IMG/VR virus record: IMGVR_UViG_3300033121_001702
Source of the DNA: a virus
Length of the DNA stretch: 21,507 bases
Direction: 5' to 3' (one strand)
Positions within the stretch are counted from its first letter, which is position 1; every line of letters begins with the position of its first letter. Under the pieces are notes generated by a model, which worked only from the letters and a program-made list of their open reading frames with translations, was not told the DNA's origin and ran no database searches. Both the position numbers and the translations under genes were made by a program. Of this stretch, positions 1,120 through 21,168 are shown one piece after another.

Positions 1120-2043
1120 TTAACTTCGTTGTTCGCTGGAAGTTGAAAAACCAACAGTACCAGATTCGGTAGCTGATTTTTTACGTGTTTCAATATTCTT
1201 TAGCTTTTCGATAGTATCTCGATAAGAAAGACCCAAACATTTTACTGCAACTACTAGTTCGGCTAAGGATGCAAAAGACAACCCTTCGCTTTCCTTAACC
1301 CACATTTCGATCTCCTGATTTGTTGAAGTGGTATTCAACTTCTTCAAAAGAAATTGTCGTCTGATTTCGGTTTTTGGCATATCAATGCGAAGAACTGTGT
1401 CAAAACGTCGTGGTCGTGCTGAAATTCGTTTATCTAACTCTTCTGGATAATTGGTGGTAGCTATGTTGATAACATGATTAATTTGTGACTCGCCGTCTAA
1501 TAATCGAAGAAAAGCACTTTCTTCGTATATTTTAACCAAATTATCTAAATCTTCGAACACACAAACAACAGGTTTTGTAGGCTCAATAAATCTAAATTTT
1601 GTAAGACCTTGTTCTAAAAATTCAGGATGTCCTGCTAAAAAACAAACTCCGCCTTGTGAGATAACGTGCAAAATAACTTGATGAACAATTGAAGTTTTAC
1701 CAGAACCCTGAGGTCCATAAAGTAAAAATCCTCGTTTGTGCACAAATTTATATGATTCAAAAGCAGTTGCGGTTGCCCAGAATTTGTTTGTTTCATTCAT
1801 TATTCGTTCGGATAAGTCATCTTTAAAAACAAACAATTCATCTGTATTTAAAGGCTGTGGAATATAAACTGGTTCACCATCATATTTGTCGATTCGATAA
1901 GAACCTGGACCTAAAGCTTTGTATGTATGCCCAACGGGTGAATAACCACCTAGCTTACTTACATATTGTGTGTAAAAATTTTTCTTAGTTGAACTTGTTG
2001 CTGCGACAGTTGGAGTAATATCAAAGGGATCAATTTGTTGCAT
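1120..2043 (-). CDS. AAA-family ATPase (classic AAA clade)
   Basis: Walker A LLYGPQGSGKTS, Walker B VVCVFEDLD, second region of homology ATTNYPEELDKRISARPRRFD (cf. ATNRPDxLDPALxRPGRFD). Confidence 0.8.
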   Translation of the reverse strand: MQQIDPFDITPTVAATSSTKKNFYTQYVSKLGGYSPVGHTYKALGPGSYRIDKYDGEPVYIPQPLNTDELFVFKDDLSERIMNETNKFWATATAFESYKFVHKRGFLLYGPQGSGKTSIVHQVILHVISQGGVCFLAGHPEFLEQGLTKFRFIEPTKPVVCVFEDLDNLVKIYEESAFLRLLDGESQINHVINIATTNYPEELDKRISARPRRFDTVLRIDMPKTEIRRQFLLKKLNTTSTNQEIEMWVKESEGLSFASLAELVVAVKCLGLSYRDTIEKLKNIETRKKSATESGTVGFSTSSEQRS

Positions 2044-4784: not shown

Positions 4785-4971
4785 ATTCTAATAAAATTTG
4801 TTCGGCTTCAAATTTGCCATATAAAGTTCTTAACTCTTCGATTAGAAAATTTAATCTTAATCTATCTTCATGGGATAAATTTGAAGGTATAGTTTCATTT
4901 TTTAATCCATTCCAATGATGTCTGAGCGCATGTCGAACTTCATTCCATTTTTCTGTAAAGTTGTTTGTCAT
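4765..4971 (-). CDS. hypothetical protein (68 aa)
   Basis: ORF track. Confidence 0.4.
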   Translation of the reverse strand: MTNNFTEKWNEVRHALRHHWNGLKNETIPSNLSHEDRLRLNFLIEELRTLYGKFEAEQILLEYDDESN

Positions 4972-5149
4972 TTTAAATCCTATAACTCATTTTAACATAT
5001 TCTTCTTCTGTAAATTTGAAATATCACAATCTTCGGTATGTGGAGCATTTTTGATTATTTCCCGAAGTTGAGCATTTTCTTCTTTGAGTTGTTTAACTTC
5101 TTCAGAATCGTCTACATCATCAAAATTCCATACATGTATGCTCATACTT

Positions 5150-5440
5150 TTATTGACCTTTTTTAACTCGAATAATTAACCAACTAAGTAAATTTATTTT
5201 ACCTTCACCAACTTGTTCTTGATAAGCAGCTTTTACAATATGGTATACTTTCGTAATCTCATCTTGCAATTCATCAGACATTTCTACTAAACTTTGAATA
5301 TGAAAATCCGCTTCAGCGACATCAAACTTTTCATCAGCAAACCACATACACCAAGCTCTATCATCCACAACACTGGTTACGGTCATTAGCGGTCCACCGC
5401 TTTTTAATTTTACAGTACTTCCAATTTTAATCATTTCCAA
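5150..5440 (-). CDS. hypothetical protein (96 aa), YodC/DUF2158-like small protein?
   Basis: ORF track; motif KLKSGGPLMTV, family assignment uncertain. Confidence 0.4.
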   Translation of the reverse strand: MEMIKIGSTVKLKSGGPLMTVTSVVDDRAWCMWFADEKFDVAEADFHIQSLVEMSDELQDEITKVYHIVKAAYQEQVGEGKINLLSWLIIRVKKGQ

Positions 5441-15954: not shown

Positions 15955-16143
15955 TTATTGAAGTTTGTTACTTTTATCGGGCATCATTATAGCTCCGATA
16001 AACGAAAAAGGTCCAAATATTAGACCAATGAGTCCCCACTTGAGTGTATTTTGTCTACACAGTTTGGCAATCCTGATAACAGGTAACGCGCAAACTATCC
16101 AAAACACAATCAAGAAGAAGTTAGCAGATCCAAAAAGAATCAT
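15955..16143 (-). CDS. small membrane protein (62 aa)
   Basis: Two hydrophobic helices; ATG overlaps the upstream TGA as ATGA. Confidence 0.4.
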   Translation of the reverse strand: MILFGSANFFLIVFWIVCALPVIRIAKLCRQNTLKWGLIGLIFGPFSFIGAIMMPDKSNKLQ

Positions 16144-16277
16144 GATTCTTCCCAGGTTCTCCAGCCCATATATCCGCCGATGGCAAGTCCTAAAATTCCT
16201 AGAACAGGATGTCCTAGTATTAATAGAATCAATCCAGCGCCAAATATAATAACTGGAAGGTTAAATTGTGGTTTCAT
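16140..16277 (-). CDS. small membrane protein (45 aa, below the ORF-track cut-off)
   Basis: MKPQFNLPVIIFGAGLILLILGHPVLGILGLAIGGYMGWRTWEES; stop overlaps the next start as ATGA. Confidence 0.3.
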   Translation of the reverse strand: MKPQFNLPVIIFGAGLILLILGHPVLGILGLAIGGYMGWRTWEES

Positions 16278-16301
16278 ATTATTTCCTTGAAATTTATTGT
16301 G

Positions 16302-16342
16302 TGCCGCGAGAGGGATTCGAACCCTACACTGGAGGGATTTTA
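16302..16342 (-). tRNA. 3' portion of an interrupted tRNA gene (anticodon stem 3' strand, variable loop, T-arm, acceptor 3' strand)
   Basis: Minus-strand read (taaaa)-TCCCT-ccagtg-TAGGG-TTCGAAT-CCCTC-TCGCGGC-A; pairs with the 5' portion at 17115-17148 (see findings). Confidence 0.4.
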
Positions 16343-16377
16343 CGTACTACTATTAGATTTCCTAATCCTGTATTGAA

Positions 16378-17034
16378 CTATACAGTTGTAGTCTGGACTA
16401 TTTCTTCACCTTGAATATTCTTATTTTTAGGTGTTCCGTGCATAGTCTCTGAAGCTTCCTCTTTATTAAGAGGCTCGCCTGCTGGTTGTACAATATCACT
16501 TATTTTTATAACATTCGCACTCGTTGTTGCCAACCATGCTGTAGTTAAGTGATCTCTAAGTGTTTTCCAGCAATTCTCGGAAATACTACTGTTCTTTTTC
16601 AAGTACAGCGACCTGTGATGTTGTAAATAGCGATGTAAAGAATTATGAGCACTAGTTGCTAAAATCCATAAATTCTCAGATTGGTTGTTTTGTGGATTTT
16701 CATCTACATGGTGCACAACATGATATTTTGGAATAGCAATTCCCAGTGACTTAACATAAGAGCGACCTACGGTCATCCCAGTTTTATCTCTGGGAACTTT
16801 ATTATAATCTTCAACAACTTTATATCGACACCCAATGTGTGCAACTTGATTTTTTCTCCAAGCTTTCATTGGTTGTTTACATACCGCACACTCACTCAGA
16901 CAATAGTGGTTGCCATATTTTTTAGTCCGTTGACGATTATATTCTTTTGCACACTCTTTGCATCTTTTTCGTTCTACAACACCTACTTTTCCACAATCAA
17001 TACATTTCTTTTCGGATAAAGGTATTTTTGACAT
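16378..17034 (-). CDS. HNH endonuclease (free-standing, or encoded in an intron-like insertion)
   Basis: CIDCGKVG...CKEC zinc motif and HNH motif HHVDENPQNNQSENLWILATSAHNSLH; start at ATG 17034 with SD GGAG (the ORF-track start at 17100 lies upstream of the promoter -10 box). Confidence 0.75.
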   Translation of the reverse strand: MSKIPLSEKKCIDCGKVGVVERKRCKECAKEYNRQRTKKYGNHYCLSECAVCKQPMKAWRKNQVAHIGCRYKVVEDYNKVPRDKTGMTVGRSYVKSLGIAIPKYHVVHHVDENPQNNQSENLWILATSAHNSLHRYLQHHRSLYLKKNSSISENCWKTLRDHLTTAWLATTSANVIKISDIVQPAGEPLNKEEASETMHGTPKNKNIQGEEIVQTTTV

Positions 17035-17065
17035 TTTAGCTCCAATCTTGTTTTCGTATACATAC

Positions 17066-17094
17066 AATATACAAAATTGGAAGGTACTTGTCAA
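17066..17094 (-). promoter_or_regulatory. sigma70-type promoter P4 driving the second HNH gene
   Basis: Minus-strand read TTGACAagtaccttccaattttgTATATTgtatg; -35 at 17089-17094, -10 at 17066-17071, spacer 17. Confidence 0.6.
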
Positions 17095-17114
17095 GTTCAT
17101 TTGTGGAAATGTTT

Positions 17115-17148
17115 AGTCCCTTGTCTCTACCAGTTGGACTACCGCAGC
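17115..17148 (-). tRNA. 5' portion of an interrupted tRNA gene (acceptor 5' strand, D-arm, anticodon stem 5' strand)
   Basis: Minus-strand read GCTGCGG-TA-GTC-CAACTGGTAGA-GAC-A-AGGGA-CT; GCTGCGG pairs 7/7 (2 GU) with TCGCGGC at 16303-16309, and AGGGA pairs 5/5 with TCCCT at 16333-16337. Confidence 0.4.
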
Positions 17149-17216
17149 ATTCTATTGAGACAACAAGTTTGATAAAATCTTATACCACGTTTTGATTGAT
17201 TTGTCTCGCAAATCAA

Positions 17217-17615
17217 TTAATCAGAAAAAGGTATATGTTTGGTTTGTTGCTGTAATTCTTCGGAACGCGTTACCGAAACAATTGCAGCGTCTTGTATGTG
17301 AAACCATTGAGTCAAACCCTCCATGGCTATAGTTAAATTAAACTCTTTACAAGAATAAAGATCACATGAAAAATAACACAGCTCTGGCCACGTATGAATA
17401 GTCATATGACTTTCGGCCCAGATCGCAGTGCCTGTAACTCCCGATTGTTGGTCACCCACGCTCGGAAATCCGTATATTATCGGATTTTGCATTAACGTCA
17501 TTCCCAGTTGAGACGTTATTGTGCGCATCACATTGTCTATATAATTTGTATTGACAAGTAAGTGTACAAAGGCTGGGTCAACCTTACAGTCAAGAATTAA
17601 GTGCATGCCGTGCAA
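17217..17615 (-). CDS. speH: S-adenosylmethionine decarboxylase proenzyme, pyruvoyl-dependent (SpeH/class 1 AdoMetDC-like)
   Basis: HLILDCKVD...GFPSVGDQQSGVTGTAIWAESHMTIHTWPELCYFSCDLYSC aligns with Bacillus/archaeal SpeH ([31 protein letters not shown]), including the ES|H serine that is processed to pyruvoyl. Confidence 0.8.
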   Translation of the reverse strand: MHGMHLILDCKVDPAFVHLLVNTNYIDNVMRTITSQLGMTLMQNPIIYGFPSVGDQQSGVTGTAIWAESHMTIHTWPELCYFSCDLYSCKEFNLTIAMEGLTQWFHIQDAAIVSVTRSEELQQQTKHIPFSD

Positions 17616-17631
17616 CTTAACATAAATCTCC

Positions 17632-17877
17632 TTAAGTTAATAATATTTCATTAATTAATTCTGGTTCAGTAGAATCAATTACTTGAATTTTTTGAATAGC
17701 GCTGTAGTTTAAACCAAGAATTTGATGATAGTCGTTTCCTAATACTTCAGTCCATTGACGTTTTAGTAACGTATTATCAAGTTTTTGTCTTAATCTCCAC
17801 TTTGCTTCTTCTATTGTCATACTTTCCGGTTTTTCAGAAAGTTCGAGCTCGATGGTTAAATTTATCGTGGCTTTCAT
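17632..17877 (-). CDS. hypothetical protein (81 aa)
   Basis: ORF track; start uncertain (overlaps the upstream gene by 44 nt). Confidence 0.4.
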   Translation of the reverse strand: MKATINLTIELELSEKPESMTIEEAKWRLRQKLDNTLLKRQWTEVLGNDYHQILGLNYSAIQKIQVIDSTEPELINEILLT

Positions 17878-19580: not shown

Positions 19581-19957
19581 AATAATTTTAACTCTCCAGT
19601 TATTTCATCTATTACTTCGGACCAATCTGGTCCCAGTGCCATACATGTAATTGTTGGTACACCGTTAAATTCAGTATCCCCTGAATCTGTAATAATCTTG
19701 CAGGGTACGTGTGAAGCATAAGCTTCATGTGCAAGTGCTAAAAGTTCGCCTTCAGAATCTACTGAAACACAAACTTTTTTAAAACTGTAACCAGATTCCG
19801 GATCCATCCATAATCGCATGGGTTCCGAAATCTGATTGCGTCTTTGAGCATCTAAAATTAAACCAAGACATGCGTGTGCTCCTTGTGCCACCATTTTACC
19901 TTTGCGCATATTTAGATCTTTGCGCATTACGATGACTTGTTTTATATCTCTTTTCAT
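19577..19957 (-). CDS. pth2: peptidyl-tRNA hydrolase, PTH2 family
   Basis: KQVIVMRKDLNMRKGKMVAQGAHACLGL matches PTH2 [26 protein letters not shown]; the C-terminal GVPTITCMALGPDWSEVIDEITGELKLL matches [26 protein letters not shown]. Confidence 0.8.
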   Translation of the reverse strand: MKRDIKQVIVMRKDLNMRKGKMVAQGAHACLGLILDAQRRNQISEPMRLWMDPESGYSFKKVCVSVDSEGELLALAHEAYASHVPCKIITDSGDTEFNGVPTITCMALGPDWSEVIDEITGELKLL

Positions 19958-21168
19958 GTTCGTAAATGTGGAAACAAAATAACTTCTTTAATGCTATCAA
20001 TATCGAACATTGTCATAAATAATCTATCAATACCGATACCCATGCCACCGGCTGGAGGCATACCGTATTTTAAAGCTTGTAAGAAATCTTCGTCTAACGG
20101 ATAATCGGTATTAACTTGATTCATAAACATTCGACGTTGTTCTTCGTAGTCATTTTGTTCTGAATATATATTTGCTAATTCAACACCTTTCCAGTAAAAT
20201 TGTGCTTTTTCTGCTAATCCTTTAACTCCATGTTCTTTTGCTAAAGGAACTAATTCTCGTGGATAATTTACCACACTACATAAATCTTGTAATGTGGATT
20301 GAACGTGTTGTTTAAAATAATCATCTTTTTCAGCTAATGGAATTTCTTTAGGTACTAAGTTATTATATTGATGAATTTTGTGCATCATAACAGCTTTACC
20401 TAAAAATTTCTTTGAAAGATGTGAAATTAATTCTTGAAACAAAACACTCATTGTACAATAATCAGCATATGCTTGATAAATTTCAATCATTGTAAATTCA
20501 GGATTGTGTGTTTTGTCCATACCTTCGTTGCGGAAATTTTTACCAATTTCAAATATTTTTTCAAACCCGCCTACTAAGAGACGCTTTAAATACAACTCTG
20601 GAGCAATACGTAAATACATATCTTGATTAAGTGAGTTATATTTCGTAATAAATGGTTTAGCAGTTGCTCCGCCATATACTGGTTGTAAAATTGGTGTTTC
20701 AACTTCCGTAAAATAATGTGTTTCGGTCAAATATTTACGAATTTCGTAAATAAAATCACTACGCAATCTAAAGATTTTATAGACTTCTGGATTAATTTGA
20801 AGATCTATATATCTTTGACGATATCGAGTTTCTTTGTCTGTAATTTGAAAATATTCCGCATCTTCAGTAGATTTCGGAAAAGGCATTGAAATTACTGGAA
20901 CATGTTGAATTTTAAATTTCAATACACGTAGAGATGGTTCCCCTGTCTTTGTTACAAACTCTTCGGCTTCATGAACGGAAATCAAATCTCCAACTTTCAA
21001 ATTAAGAAACTCATCAAAATTTTCGGTAACATCTTTCTTTGCATAAAGCTGAATAGCTTCTCCGTATGACATGATATGCACAAAAGATGATTTTCCCATT
21101 ACACGGACTGATTTTACACGTCCGTTATAATTGTATACTTTAGTAATTGAAGACTCGTTGGTGTCCAC
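19954..21168 (-). CDS. lysS: lysyl-tRNA synthetase, class II (LysRS), with a shortened N-terminal anticodon-binding domain
   Basis: RYRQRYIDL signature; motif 2 NFRNEGM; motif 3 GGMGIGIDRL; the core GGATAKPFITKYNSLNQDMYLRIAPELYLKRLLVGGFEKIFEIGKNFRNEGMDKTHNPEFTMIEIYQAYADY is nearly identical to E. coli LysS; 404 aa vs about 505. Confidence 0.9.
   Translation of the reverse strand: MDTNESSITKVYNYNGRVKSVRVMGKSSFVHIMSYGEAIQLYAKKDVTENFDEFLNLKVGDLISVHEAEEFVTKTGEPSLRVLKFKIQHVPVISMPFPKSTEDAEYFQITDKETRYRQRYIDLQINPEVYKIFRLRSDFIYEIRKYLTETHYFTEVETPILQPVYGGATAKPFITKYNSLNQDMYLRIAPELYLKRLLVGGFEKIFEIGKNFRNEGMDKTHNPEFTMIEIYQAYADYCTMSVLFQELISHLSKKFLGKAVMMHKIHQYNNLVPKEIPLAEKDDYFKQHVQSTLQDLCSVVNYPRELVPLAKEHGVKGLAEKAQFYWKGVELANIYSEQNDYEEQRRMFMNQVNTDYPLDEDFLQALKYGMPPAGGMGIGIDRLFMTMFDIDSIKEVILFPHLRT

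Follow-up and report, generated by a model that had tools for sequence, protein, structure and literature searches.

A probable mobile group I intron with an HNH endonuclease gene in a phage tRNA-Leu(UAA) gene

The stretch of DNA analysed here, IMG/VR virus record IMGVR_UViG_3300033121_001702 (21,507 nucleotides, hereafter the window), contains on its minus strand, at positions 16302-17148, what is very probably a phage tRNA(UAA) gene, read as tRNA-Leu, with a mobile group I intron lodged between U33 and U34. Judged from sequence comparisons with its relatives, the element is real and almost certainly functional. A more far-reaching proposal is put forward with rather less than even confidence: no family of mobile group I introns would have been described from phage tRNA genes before, and ribozyme and endonuclease would be truly dual-coded, the guide sequence and P2-P5 also encoding a folded, functionally required C-terminal module of the enzyme.

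The interrupted tRNA gene

A preliminary description, made from the letters alone, had proposed that a tRNA gene was split in its anticodon loop by a 772-bp insertion. Both inspection of the sequence and ARAGORN with introns allowed led to the same gene, which was called on the raw window as c[16301,17148] (taa) i(35,772). The splice point giving anticodon UAA (Leu) had been a guess; the same junction was obtained from ARAGORN and from all homologues. The locus is organized as follows.

17115-17148, minus strand: 5' exon of the tRNA(UAA) gene, GCTGCGGTAGTCCAACTGGTAGAGACAAGGGACT, with the acceptor 5' strand, the D arm, the anticodon stem 5' strand, C32 and U33
16343-17114, minus strand: group I intron, 772 nt, supported by ARAGORN, Rfam RF00028 and covariation
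16302-16342, minus strand: 3' exon of the tRNA(UAA) gene, TAAAATCCCTCCAGTGTAGGGTTCGAATCCCTCTCGCGGCA, with U34, A35 and A36, the anticodon stem 3' strand, the T arm, the acceptor 3' strand and A73

As already noticed in the preliminary description, the insert is preceded by a U (U33, position 17115) and its last base is a G (16343). The variable region of the 3' exon is 6 nt long, and CCA is not encoded. Joined in silico, the exons formed a 75-nt cloverleaf called tRNA-Leu(taa) by ARAGORN, with the acceptor stem (7/7, including two G.U) and anticodon stem (5/5) paired as originally described, a D stem of 3 bp and a T stem of 4/5, the irregularity of the latter being a U49.C65 mismatch or a bulged U. 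The spliced tRNA would read UUA and UUG, which together represent 64% of the Leu codons in the window. No tRNA of any kind was called in 40 dinucleotide-shuffled windows (about 860 kb). In default mode, ARAGORN called the five other tRNAs of the window and missed the split one.

A clear relationship was observed between the two exons when intron-bearing members were compared. Acceptor-stem sequences differed in nearly every member, yet they were paired 7/7 in 11 of the 14 members. Likewise, the anticodon stem covaried across these 14 members (GGG/CCC, CGG/CCG, UGG/CCA, AAG/CUU, AGG/CCU), and the discriminator A73 was invariant (14/14). Since the coevolving strands lie about 800 nt apart in separate exons, the exons must be joined, which implies, as far as comparative evidence goes, that they make a working tRNA.

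Bacterial tRNA-Leu belongs to class II, with a long variable arm. Such an arm was found in the 13 other intron-bearing members, whose variable regions measured 12-17 nt, and was missing in the window tRNA, with its 6 nt. Uninterrupted tRNAs displaying the window's D arm, anticodon arm and short variable loop were found in two IMG/VR contigs (L187 and L140), and the same short-loop tRNA occurred uninterrupted in 82 GenBank phage records, where it is annotated as tRNA-Leu. Uninterrupted homologues thus exist in related genomes, so that the two pieces are not unrelated sequences. On this comparison, the short variable region does not appear to be a product of decay but places the window tRNA in a class-I-like group of phage tRNA(UAA). 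More generally, phage tRNAs of about 73-77 nt with anticodon UAA, a 5-nt variable loop and A73, annotated as tRNA-Leu, are widespread (L077, L140, L156, L187, L191; GenBank hits H16-H30) and were recorded in Pseudomonas, Bacillus, Lactobacillus, cyanophage and E. coli/Salmonella phage genomes.

A group I ribozyme within the endonuclease gene

The insert matched the Rfam group I model RF00028 at 16373-16638 on the minus strand (51.1 bits, gathering threshold 50), and its homologues scored between 51 and 72 bits. In blastn comparisons, positions 16438-16580 resembled introns of Staphylococcus, Streptococcus, Bacillus and Vibrio phages (about 71-75% over about 100-140 nt). The preliminary description had favoured a group I intron while objecting that the non-coding sequence was too short for a core, unless the core overlapped the open reading frame (ORF). 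Its proviso turned out to be the case and the objection fell, since the core recognized by Rfam lies inside the 3' third of the HNH ORF. The following elements were assigned.

16588-16609, minus strand: P2 hairpin, 9 bp with a GAAA tetraloop; 8 of 9 pairs changed on both sides, 97.8% of cells paired
16582-16578 with 16438-16434, minus strand: P3, 100% paired; 4 of 5 pairs compensatory
16572-16567 with 16485-16480, minus strand: P4, within P3 (covariation count, Rfam alignment)
16553-16547 with 16501-16495, minus strand: P5a, which covaries as does P5
16539-16517, minus strand: P5b with a GNRA loop, covarying
16478-16454, minus strand: P6/P6a, P6 covarying
16447-16442 with 16401-16396, minus strand: P7, in pseudoknot with P3, G-binding site (covariation count, Rfam alignment)
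16432-16408, minus strand: P8, followed by J8/7 (covariation count, Rfam alignment)
16392-16388 with 16350-16346, minus strand: P9.0, covarying
16385-16368, minus strand: P9, which holds the ORF stop codon; hairpin read in each member from the alignment
16366-16352, minus strand: P9a with a GAAA-type loop, covarying
16343, minus strand: omega-G, the 3'-terminal G of the intron

The structure was written on an alignment of 15 sequences (A1), in which 66 pairs were counted; P9, whose columns were poorly aligned, was kept outside the count. A separate alignment covered the 3' 430 nt of the homologues. Among the 15 sequences, 95.8% of the cells formed a standard pair, versus 31-46% when partners were slid by one to three columns. 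Changes on both sides were seen in 42 of the 66 pairs (4-11 when slid) and the covariation score was 0.478 (0.05-0.09 when slid). None of 500 shuffles reached any of the observed pairing or covariation values. Compensatory changes were most abundant in P2, P3, P5, P5b, P6, P9.0 and P9a. The window copy displayed two mismatches in 63 pairs (A.A in P2 and C.A in P5), the family range being 0-3, and had lost none of the near-invariant core bases. All members had a U at -1 and a G at the intron 3' end, L006 being aberrant after this terminal G (see below). An extended P5a/P5b arm was present, and P7.1/7.2 were absent in most members. By these comparative criteria the insert is a canonical and intact group I intron.

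The proposed guide sequence and P1

16610-16613, minus strand: internal guide sequence GGUC, proposed to pair with exon G30-A31-C32-U33 (17118-17115), with a G.U at the splice site, to form P1

GGUC was invariant in all 16 members, immediately 5' of P2, and in the ORF-less member L033 it contains the sole GGU upstream of P2. The exon GACU was invariant across members. Within the anticodon stem, positions 27-29 varied and G30-A31 never did, a pattern that fits an additional constraint on those two bases. We infer that P1 is formed by exon GACU and GGUC. As the guide sequence stands about 500 nt downstream of the 5' splice site, the loop of P1 would hold the promoter and the first 140 codons of the endonuclease. 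A local P1 was considered between AAGUACCUU (about 17090-17082) and exon AAGGGACU, and was rejected: it has an A-U instead of a G.U at the splice site and an internal mismatch, and is not conserved. A second copy of the 7-mer GGTCGCT, which spans the guide and the start of P2, occurs at 16768-16762 (minus strand) inside the HNH ORF (codons V-G-R-S); it is probably a coincidence, though it could compete for the 5' exon.

The endonuclease and its overlap with the ribozyme

16378-17034, minus strand: HNH homing-endonuclease ORF, 218 aa plus stop codon TAG at 16380-16378

That the insertion carries an HNH endonuclease gene, as first described, was borne out by Pfam HNH_3 (PF13392), which matched residues 101-132 with 26.5 bits (cut-off 24.8). 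PHROG HNH families were also matched, with E-values down to 9.6e-9. The generic HNH profiles ended at residues 141-153. Among 27 sequences, H109, N117, N121, H130 and H134 were invariant, with invariant His/Asn/Cys columns. Searches for similar folds with the endonuclease returned no informative neighbour. The P1 loop accommodates codons 1-140, and the remainder of the ORF (codons 141-218) shares its nucleotides with the guide sequence and P2-P9. The AlphaFold model (pLDDT 81) was predicted with confidence up to about residue 185. In it, the segment 141-185, for which the guide sequence and P2-P5b code, formed a short strand and two helices, the latter packed against the HNH core (pLDDT 87-97), and residues 186-218 were predicted to be disordered (pLDDT 35-51). 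The HNH motif alone usually needs an extra DNA-binding module for site specificity, as in I-HmuI-type enzymes. As generic HNH profiles reach no further than this, residues 141-185 would constitute a module specific to this intron family.

Conservation of the reading frame extended well into the ribozyme. In every one of the 16 members the frame was still open downstream of the guide sequence, for 57-87 codons, the ORF-less L033 (87 codons) included. Stop codons occurred just after P6, in P8, at P7' or in P9 (the TAG of the window), and none before the end of P6. Insertions of 9, 21, 24 and 27 nt in the P6 loop preserved the frame, and two insertions of 22 nt coincided with the end of the ORF. 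Upstream of the guide, codon positions 1, 2 and 3 displayed mean pairwise differences of 0.43, 0.33 and 0.52, a typical coding pattern. Altogether, these features give moderate support for a useful protein product of the overlap.

The putative internal promoter and ribosome-binding site

17066-17094, minus strand: predicted sigma-70-type promoter in the P1 loop, TTGACA-17-TATATT
17071-17082, minus strand: putative anti-Shine-Dalgarno strand, UUCCAAUUUUGU, identical with the promoter spacer and present only in read-through pre-tRNA transcripts
17040-17051, minus strand: Shine-Dalgarno (SD) region upstream of the HNH start, ACAAGAUUGGAG (sequence, folding)

A promoter within the insertion had been claimed in the preliminary description, and TTGACA-17-TATATT was indeed the best site in 15900-17700 (11/12). 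Its -35 box starts 20 nt after the 5' piece and not 15 nt, as had been stated. Sites scoring at least 10/12 were present at the matching offset, 18-23 nt past the 5' splice site, in L006, L007, L008 and L014. In read-through RNA, a 12-bp helix was predicted between 17082-17071 and 17051-17040, and UGUCAA (17033-17028), which includes part of the start codon, was the predicted partner of the -35 hexamer. The probability of the SD being unpaired was 0.03 in read-through RNA versus 0.24 in promoter-initiated RNA. The promoter sequence may therefore, on these folding predictions, mask the ribosome-binding site in read-through RNA, which we offer as a hypothesis.

Relatives, mobility and alleles

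The HNH protein had 31 homologues (41-72% identity). The DNA of eight of them was retrieved, and all eight lay inside a split tRNA-Leu gene, with anticodon UAA in most and CAA in L011. Scanning with a conserved 22-nt core motif brought in ten further true members, found in IMG/VR and in metagenomes, each followed by a 3' exon TAAAATC.... These eight and ten loci were all tRNA-Leu(UAA/CAA) genes with the same junction, on contigs of 23-277 kb of which several are IMG/VR viral contigs; five members belong to IMG/VR viral contigs of up to 266 kb. Many core-motif matches were chance AT-rich sequences, and all 12 matches in genomes and most of those in metagenomes were discarded on inspection, so that none of the 12 matches recorded in 185,579 species-representative bacterial and archaeal genomes was an intron. 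The tRNA-Gly(ccc) calls made by ARAGORN for L037, L038 and L045 were miscalls of the same tRNA-Leu. When the locus and the complete window were compared by megablast with 50,697 GenBank phage records, no close relative was returned, and an IMG/VR locus search with the HNH and S-adenosylmethionine (AdoMet) decarboxylase proteins found no related loci.

The family was heterogeneous in its content. L033 has an ORF-less intron of about 415 nt and L020 a remnant of 480 nt. The uninterrupted 18-bp target AAGGGACTTAAAATCCCT was present in at least 120 viral contigs; 115 of these were testable, and in 110 the target belonged to tRNA-Leu(taa). The window and L006 share endonucleases that are 72% identical and are syntenic, the AdoMet decarboxylase gene lying directly upstream in both, yet their exons are very different. 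Intron-bearing, ORF-less, truncated and intron-less alleles, together with a shared endonuclease between divergent exons, form the footprint expected of homing followed by decay of the endonuclease gene.

Some related contigs displayed further interrupted tRNA genes. L011, a 45-kb phage contig, has a second split gene about 400 nt upstream of its intron-bearing tRNA-Leu(CAA): a tRNA-Gln(CUG) gene (1691-2002, plus strand) whose group I intron of 235 nt lacks an ORF and scored 87.6 bits with Rfam (E 3.5e-21). In L009 (889-1765, plus strand), ARAGORN called a tRNA-Arg(UCU) split by 803 nt; the insert has motifs resembling P7, J8-7 and P9.0, ends in ...GTAGTACG, scored 19.6 bits with Rfam (E 0.019) and bears on the opposite strand a 199-aa HNH_2-like ORF (921-1520). 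This sequence may represent a degenerate or unusual intron. In L033, a tRNA-Arg(tct) with a 239-nt insert was called by ARAGORN next to the tRNA-Leu intron (reverse-complement 4934-5247; stored about 483-796), and this insert gave no Rfam group I match at E <= 0.001. In L033, moreover, the tRNA-Leu exons have acceptor strands that do not pair, and the gene may be chimeric. Group I introns in related contigs are thus well supported for tRNA-Gln and weakly supported for tRNA-Arg.

Exact matches to the D-arm word GGTAGTCCAACTGGTAGAGAC in four IMG/VR contigs (L002 27-47, L003 5143-5163, L004 2057-2077, L005 2381-2401) were unrelated tRNA-like loci and were rejected as homologues. Each displayed about 100 nt of non-tRNA sequence followed by a T-arm-like GGTTCGAATCC or GGGTTCAAATCCCG, and ARAGORN found no tRNA there. 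From their layout, they may be tmRNA-like or otherwise interrupted tRNA-like elements.

Phage context of the window

The window encodes a class II aminoacyl-tRNA synthetase (aaRS), ThyX, a DenV-like glycosylase, TerC, AdoMet decarboxylase and six co-directional tRNAs, almost all of them encoded on a single strand. Ribosomal genes and other core genes of cells were absent. The only phage relatives of an 879-aa ORF were the huge-phage genomes LR756500/501/503 (41-42% identity). This gene content fits a very large phage. The contig is also found in SRR32380191.

Two Pfam domains known from the major vault protein of eukaryotes, MVP_shoulder (2.8e-19) and Vault_3, matched the 879-aa ORF (12271-14910, minus strand). 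The start listed for this ORF, a TTG, overlaps tRNA-Phe (14866-14941), and the true start is probably further downstream. The tRNA cluster is flanked by the aaRS, of the Asp/Lys/Asn type (Pfam tRNA-synt_2, 1e-75; 19954-21168, minus strand), and by the AdoMet decarboxylase gene (17217-17615, minus strand). The syntenic contig L006 has both of these genes, plus a PTH2 peptidyl-tRNA hydrolase.

Proposed mechanism

Under the proposed scheme, the pre-tRNA would be transcribed through the intron and exon G30-U33 would pair with GGUC across the P1 loop. Guanosine would attack after U33, and omega-G (16343) would then direct exon ligation, giving the junction ...GGGACU|UAAAAUCCC. The endonuclease would be made mainly from transcripts of the intron's own promoter. 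Masking of the start codon and ribosome-binding site in read-through RNA would spare the ribozyme from passing ribosomes in just those transcripts that must splice. The HNH enzyme would nick or cut the intron-less tRNA-Leu(UAA) gene of co-infecting phages near AAGGGACT|TAAAATCCCT, and repair after cleavage would copy the intron in (homing). Residues 141-185 would be a folded part of this enzyme and residues 186-218 a disordered read-through tail of variable length. If dual coding holds, any one transcript could be either translated or spliced but not both, and through the internal promoter the RNA pool would be split between precursors of the tRNA and mRNAs for the endonuclease.

Alternative interpretations

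Several observations weigh against this interpretation of the locus as a splicing, mobile and dual-coding intron. At the level of the ribozyme, the Rfam score of the window copy was barely over threshold. P1 would have only 4 bp on its exon side, with no extension in the window copy; both of its strands are invariant, so that covariation is uninformative, and GGUC is also constrained by coding (Arg/Trp-Ser). A P1 loop of such length could impede folding, and so could translation through the core. A by-eye search for P10 in all members found none, UAAAAU not being complementary to the bases 5' of GGUC. Several introns can do without P10, and in tRNA introns the exons can be aligned by the anticodon stem; by analogy, exon pairing in the anticodon stem probably replaces P10 here. 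At the tRNA level, the 6-nt variable region and the T-stem irregularity are atypical for a bacterial tRNA-Leu. The closest syntenic relative, L006 (2987-3841), displayed the aberrant junction GGGACTC...AGG|AAAATCTCC, without U34. Splicing of L006 after U33 would yield an aberrant anticodon loop; splicing after C would make it a C(-1) intron comparable to 'Leu.3Cg' in Williams 2020; alternatively, L006 could be a defective copy or an assembly error. As to the endonuclease, codon positions 1, 2 and 3 in the overlap (guide plus 56 codons) varied by 0.18, 0.20 and 0.22. RNA constraint appears to dominate this region, and this flat signal means that selection at the protein level is not demonstrated there; the high AlphaFold confidence in the overlap may in part reflect RNA-driven conservation. 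Finally, masking of the SD was strong in the window copy only, homologues showing the same direction with a smaller effect.

The most serious competitor, which we regard as doubtful yet a good deal likelier than the other three, holds that the intron splices but that the overlap of ORF and ribozyme is accidental, the functional endonuclease ending near residue 140 and the rest being read-through. The flat codon-position variability, a stop position varying by 30 codons among members, the end of generic HNH profiles at 141-153 and the predicted disorder of residues 186-218 all agree with it, and the 87 open codons of the ORF-less L033 would then be due purely to sequence conservation. It accounts less readily for the lack of any stop before the end of P6, 57 codons past the guide, for the in-frame P6-loop insertions (9, 21, 24 and 27 nt, the 22-nt ones coinciding with the ORF end) and for the two helices modelled on the HNH core at residues 141-185 with pLDDT 87-97; moreover, an HNH motif alone normally needs an added DNA-binding module. 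A tRNA inactivated by a homing-endonuclease cassette, with dead halves and a ribozyme that no longer splices in the window copy, is improbable. The missing long variable arm, present in all 13 other intron-bearing members, the U49.C65 mismatch, the A.A in P2 and C.A in P5, the marginal Rfam score and the aberrant junction of L006 are arguments of this kind. Yet the short variable loop is normal in the widespread uninterrupted phage tRNA-Leu(UAA) class; acceptor and anticodon stems, U at -1, omega-G and guide are all intact; two mismatches fall within the family range and no near-invariant core nucleotide is lost; and the tRNA reads the commonest Leu codons of the phage. With an intact ribozyme and two covarying exons, the killing of a tRNA by endonuclease insertion, one of the alternatives raised in the preliminary description, was set aside.

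The other alternative raised there, a new kind of tRNA intron (or one of the protein-spliced, bulge-helix-bulge type) merely containing an endonuclease gene, is scarcely credible. It drew on the anticodon-loop position and on a first impression of scant non-coding RNA only. Opposed to it are the complete group I core, which Rfam matched significantly and which covaries strongly, the U at -1 and 3' G in all members, and the site itself, 33/34 and not the 37/38 of protein-spliced introns; the Rfam match and the covariation already refute it, the insert being a canonical group I intron. It is also improbable, slightly more so than an inactivated tRNA, that the contig is bacterial (e.g. from Patescibacteria) and that its intron adds to the catalogued bacterial tRNA group I introns. 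A homologue cluster (P0023) is labelled 'Patescibacteria group bacterium' in NCBI, an HNH-bearing intron is known from a Bacteroidota tRNA-Leu(UAA) (Nakagawa et al. 2026, PMC13011429), and metagenome bins can mix phage and host contigs. Against this, the large ORF matches only the huge-phage genomes mentioned above, the window combines six co-directional tRNAs with aaRS, ThyX and a DenV-like gene without cellular core genes, five members lie on IMG/VR viral contigs, the 'Patescibacteria' protein itself sits on a 221-kb contig that is also an IMG/VR virus, and no core-motif match in species-representative genomes was an intron. The interpretation as a phage tRNA gene with a mobile group I intron was therefore retained.

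Significance

This locus and its approximately 17 relatives indicate that phage tRNA genes are invaded, and this by introns with an active-looking endonuclease gene. Since intron-blind tRNA finders miss such genes, as ARAGORN did in default mode, the tRNA repertoires of large phages are under-counted, and 'hypothetical HNH' ORFs between tRNA fragments are mis-annotated. The further introns in tRNA-Gln and, with weaker support, tRNA-Arg genes of related contigs suggest that such elements have an overlooked habitat in the tRNA arrays of large phages. One sequence would serve here as ribozyme, guide and coding region, with a promoter that apparently is also a translational mask, which makes it a convenient system for studying constraints of RNA structure versus protein. 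As the 18-bp tRNA target is conserved in so many viral contigs, the endonuclease may mediate marker exclusion between co-infecting phages.

Comparison with known systems

The classical tRNA-Leu(UAA) intron of cyanobacteria and plastids is likewise a group I intron in the anticodon loop, with a U at -1, a 3' G and exons that pair in the anticodon stem. As cited in PMC3984707, the Anabaena tRNA-Leu intron needs this exon pairing for splicing (Zaug et al. 1993), and a similar requirement may explain the lack of P10 in the present family. The classical intron interrupts CUU/AAAA (34/35), whereas the site is CU/UAAAA (33/34) here. It is about 250 nt long, ORF-less, of subgroup IC3 and vertically inherited in cyanobacteria and plastids; the present one is 772 nt long, carries a 218-codon endonuclease ORF and an extended P5a/P5b arm, and occurs in phage genomes. 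No core similarity to the classical tRNA-Leu intron was detectable in the searches made.

The tRNA-fMet intron of Synechocystis (I-Ssp6803I) differs by its host tRNA, its endonuclease (PD-(D/E)XK and not HNH) and its location on a bacterial chromosome. Closer in organization are the bacterial HNH-bearing tRNA introns (tRNA-Asn at 35/36 in Patescibacteria and the single Bacteroidota tRNA-Leu(UAA) case; PMC13011429), which also combine a group I intron with an HNH gene in the anticodon loop. They belong to bacterial genomes, and the HNH of the tRNA-Asn introns is PF01844, in contrast to PF13392, a phage and site 33/34 here; the Bacteroidota case could be of the same family, possibly in a prophage. 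Only 12 of 333 bacterial tRNA introns carry any endonuclease gene (Nakagawa et al. 2026, PMC13011429), and tRNA group I introns were catalogued in bacterial genomes only, both there and in Williams 2020.

Bacterial group I introns favour tRNA and rRNA genes (PMC3984707). In phages, all introns known at the time of the same 2014 review lay in protein-coding genes, despite many phage tRNA genes (PMC3984707), and a full-text literature search turned up no phage tRNA gene described as split by a group I intron, an absence that is not proof. Like the present intron, those of I-HmuI/II (SPO1/SP82), I-TwoI (Twort), I-PfoP3I and I-TevIII are group I introns of phages that encode an HNH homing endonuclease, often a nicking one, and sit in a conserved, useful gene. 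They differ in that their host genes are protein-coding and their ORFs are looped out of P6, P8 or P9, whereas here the ORF starts in the P1 loop and overlaps the entire core.

The promoter arrangement recalls the T4 td intron, in which an intron-internal promoter and a predicted hairpin hiding the ribosome-binding site only in read-through transcripts separate splicing RNA from endonuclease mRNA. This mode of control of I-TevI expression was reportedly described by Gott et al. in 1988 and by Gibb and Edgell in 2010. In the present intron, the promoter is sigma-70-like and not T4 late, and the masking strand consists of the promoter spacer and the -35 hexamer. Taken one by one, the ribozyme (group I), the homing endonuclease (HNH) and the host gene (tRNA) are all of known kinds. 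What appear to be unreported are a phage tRNA gene as host, site 33/34 of tRNA-Leu, an ORF reaching from the P1 loop over the whole core, and the internal promoter.

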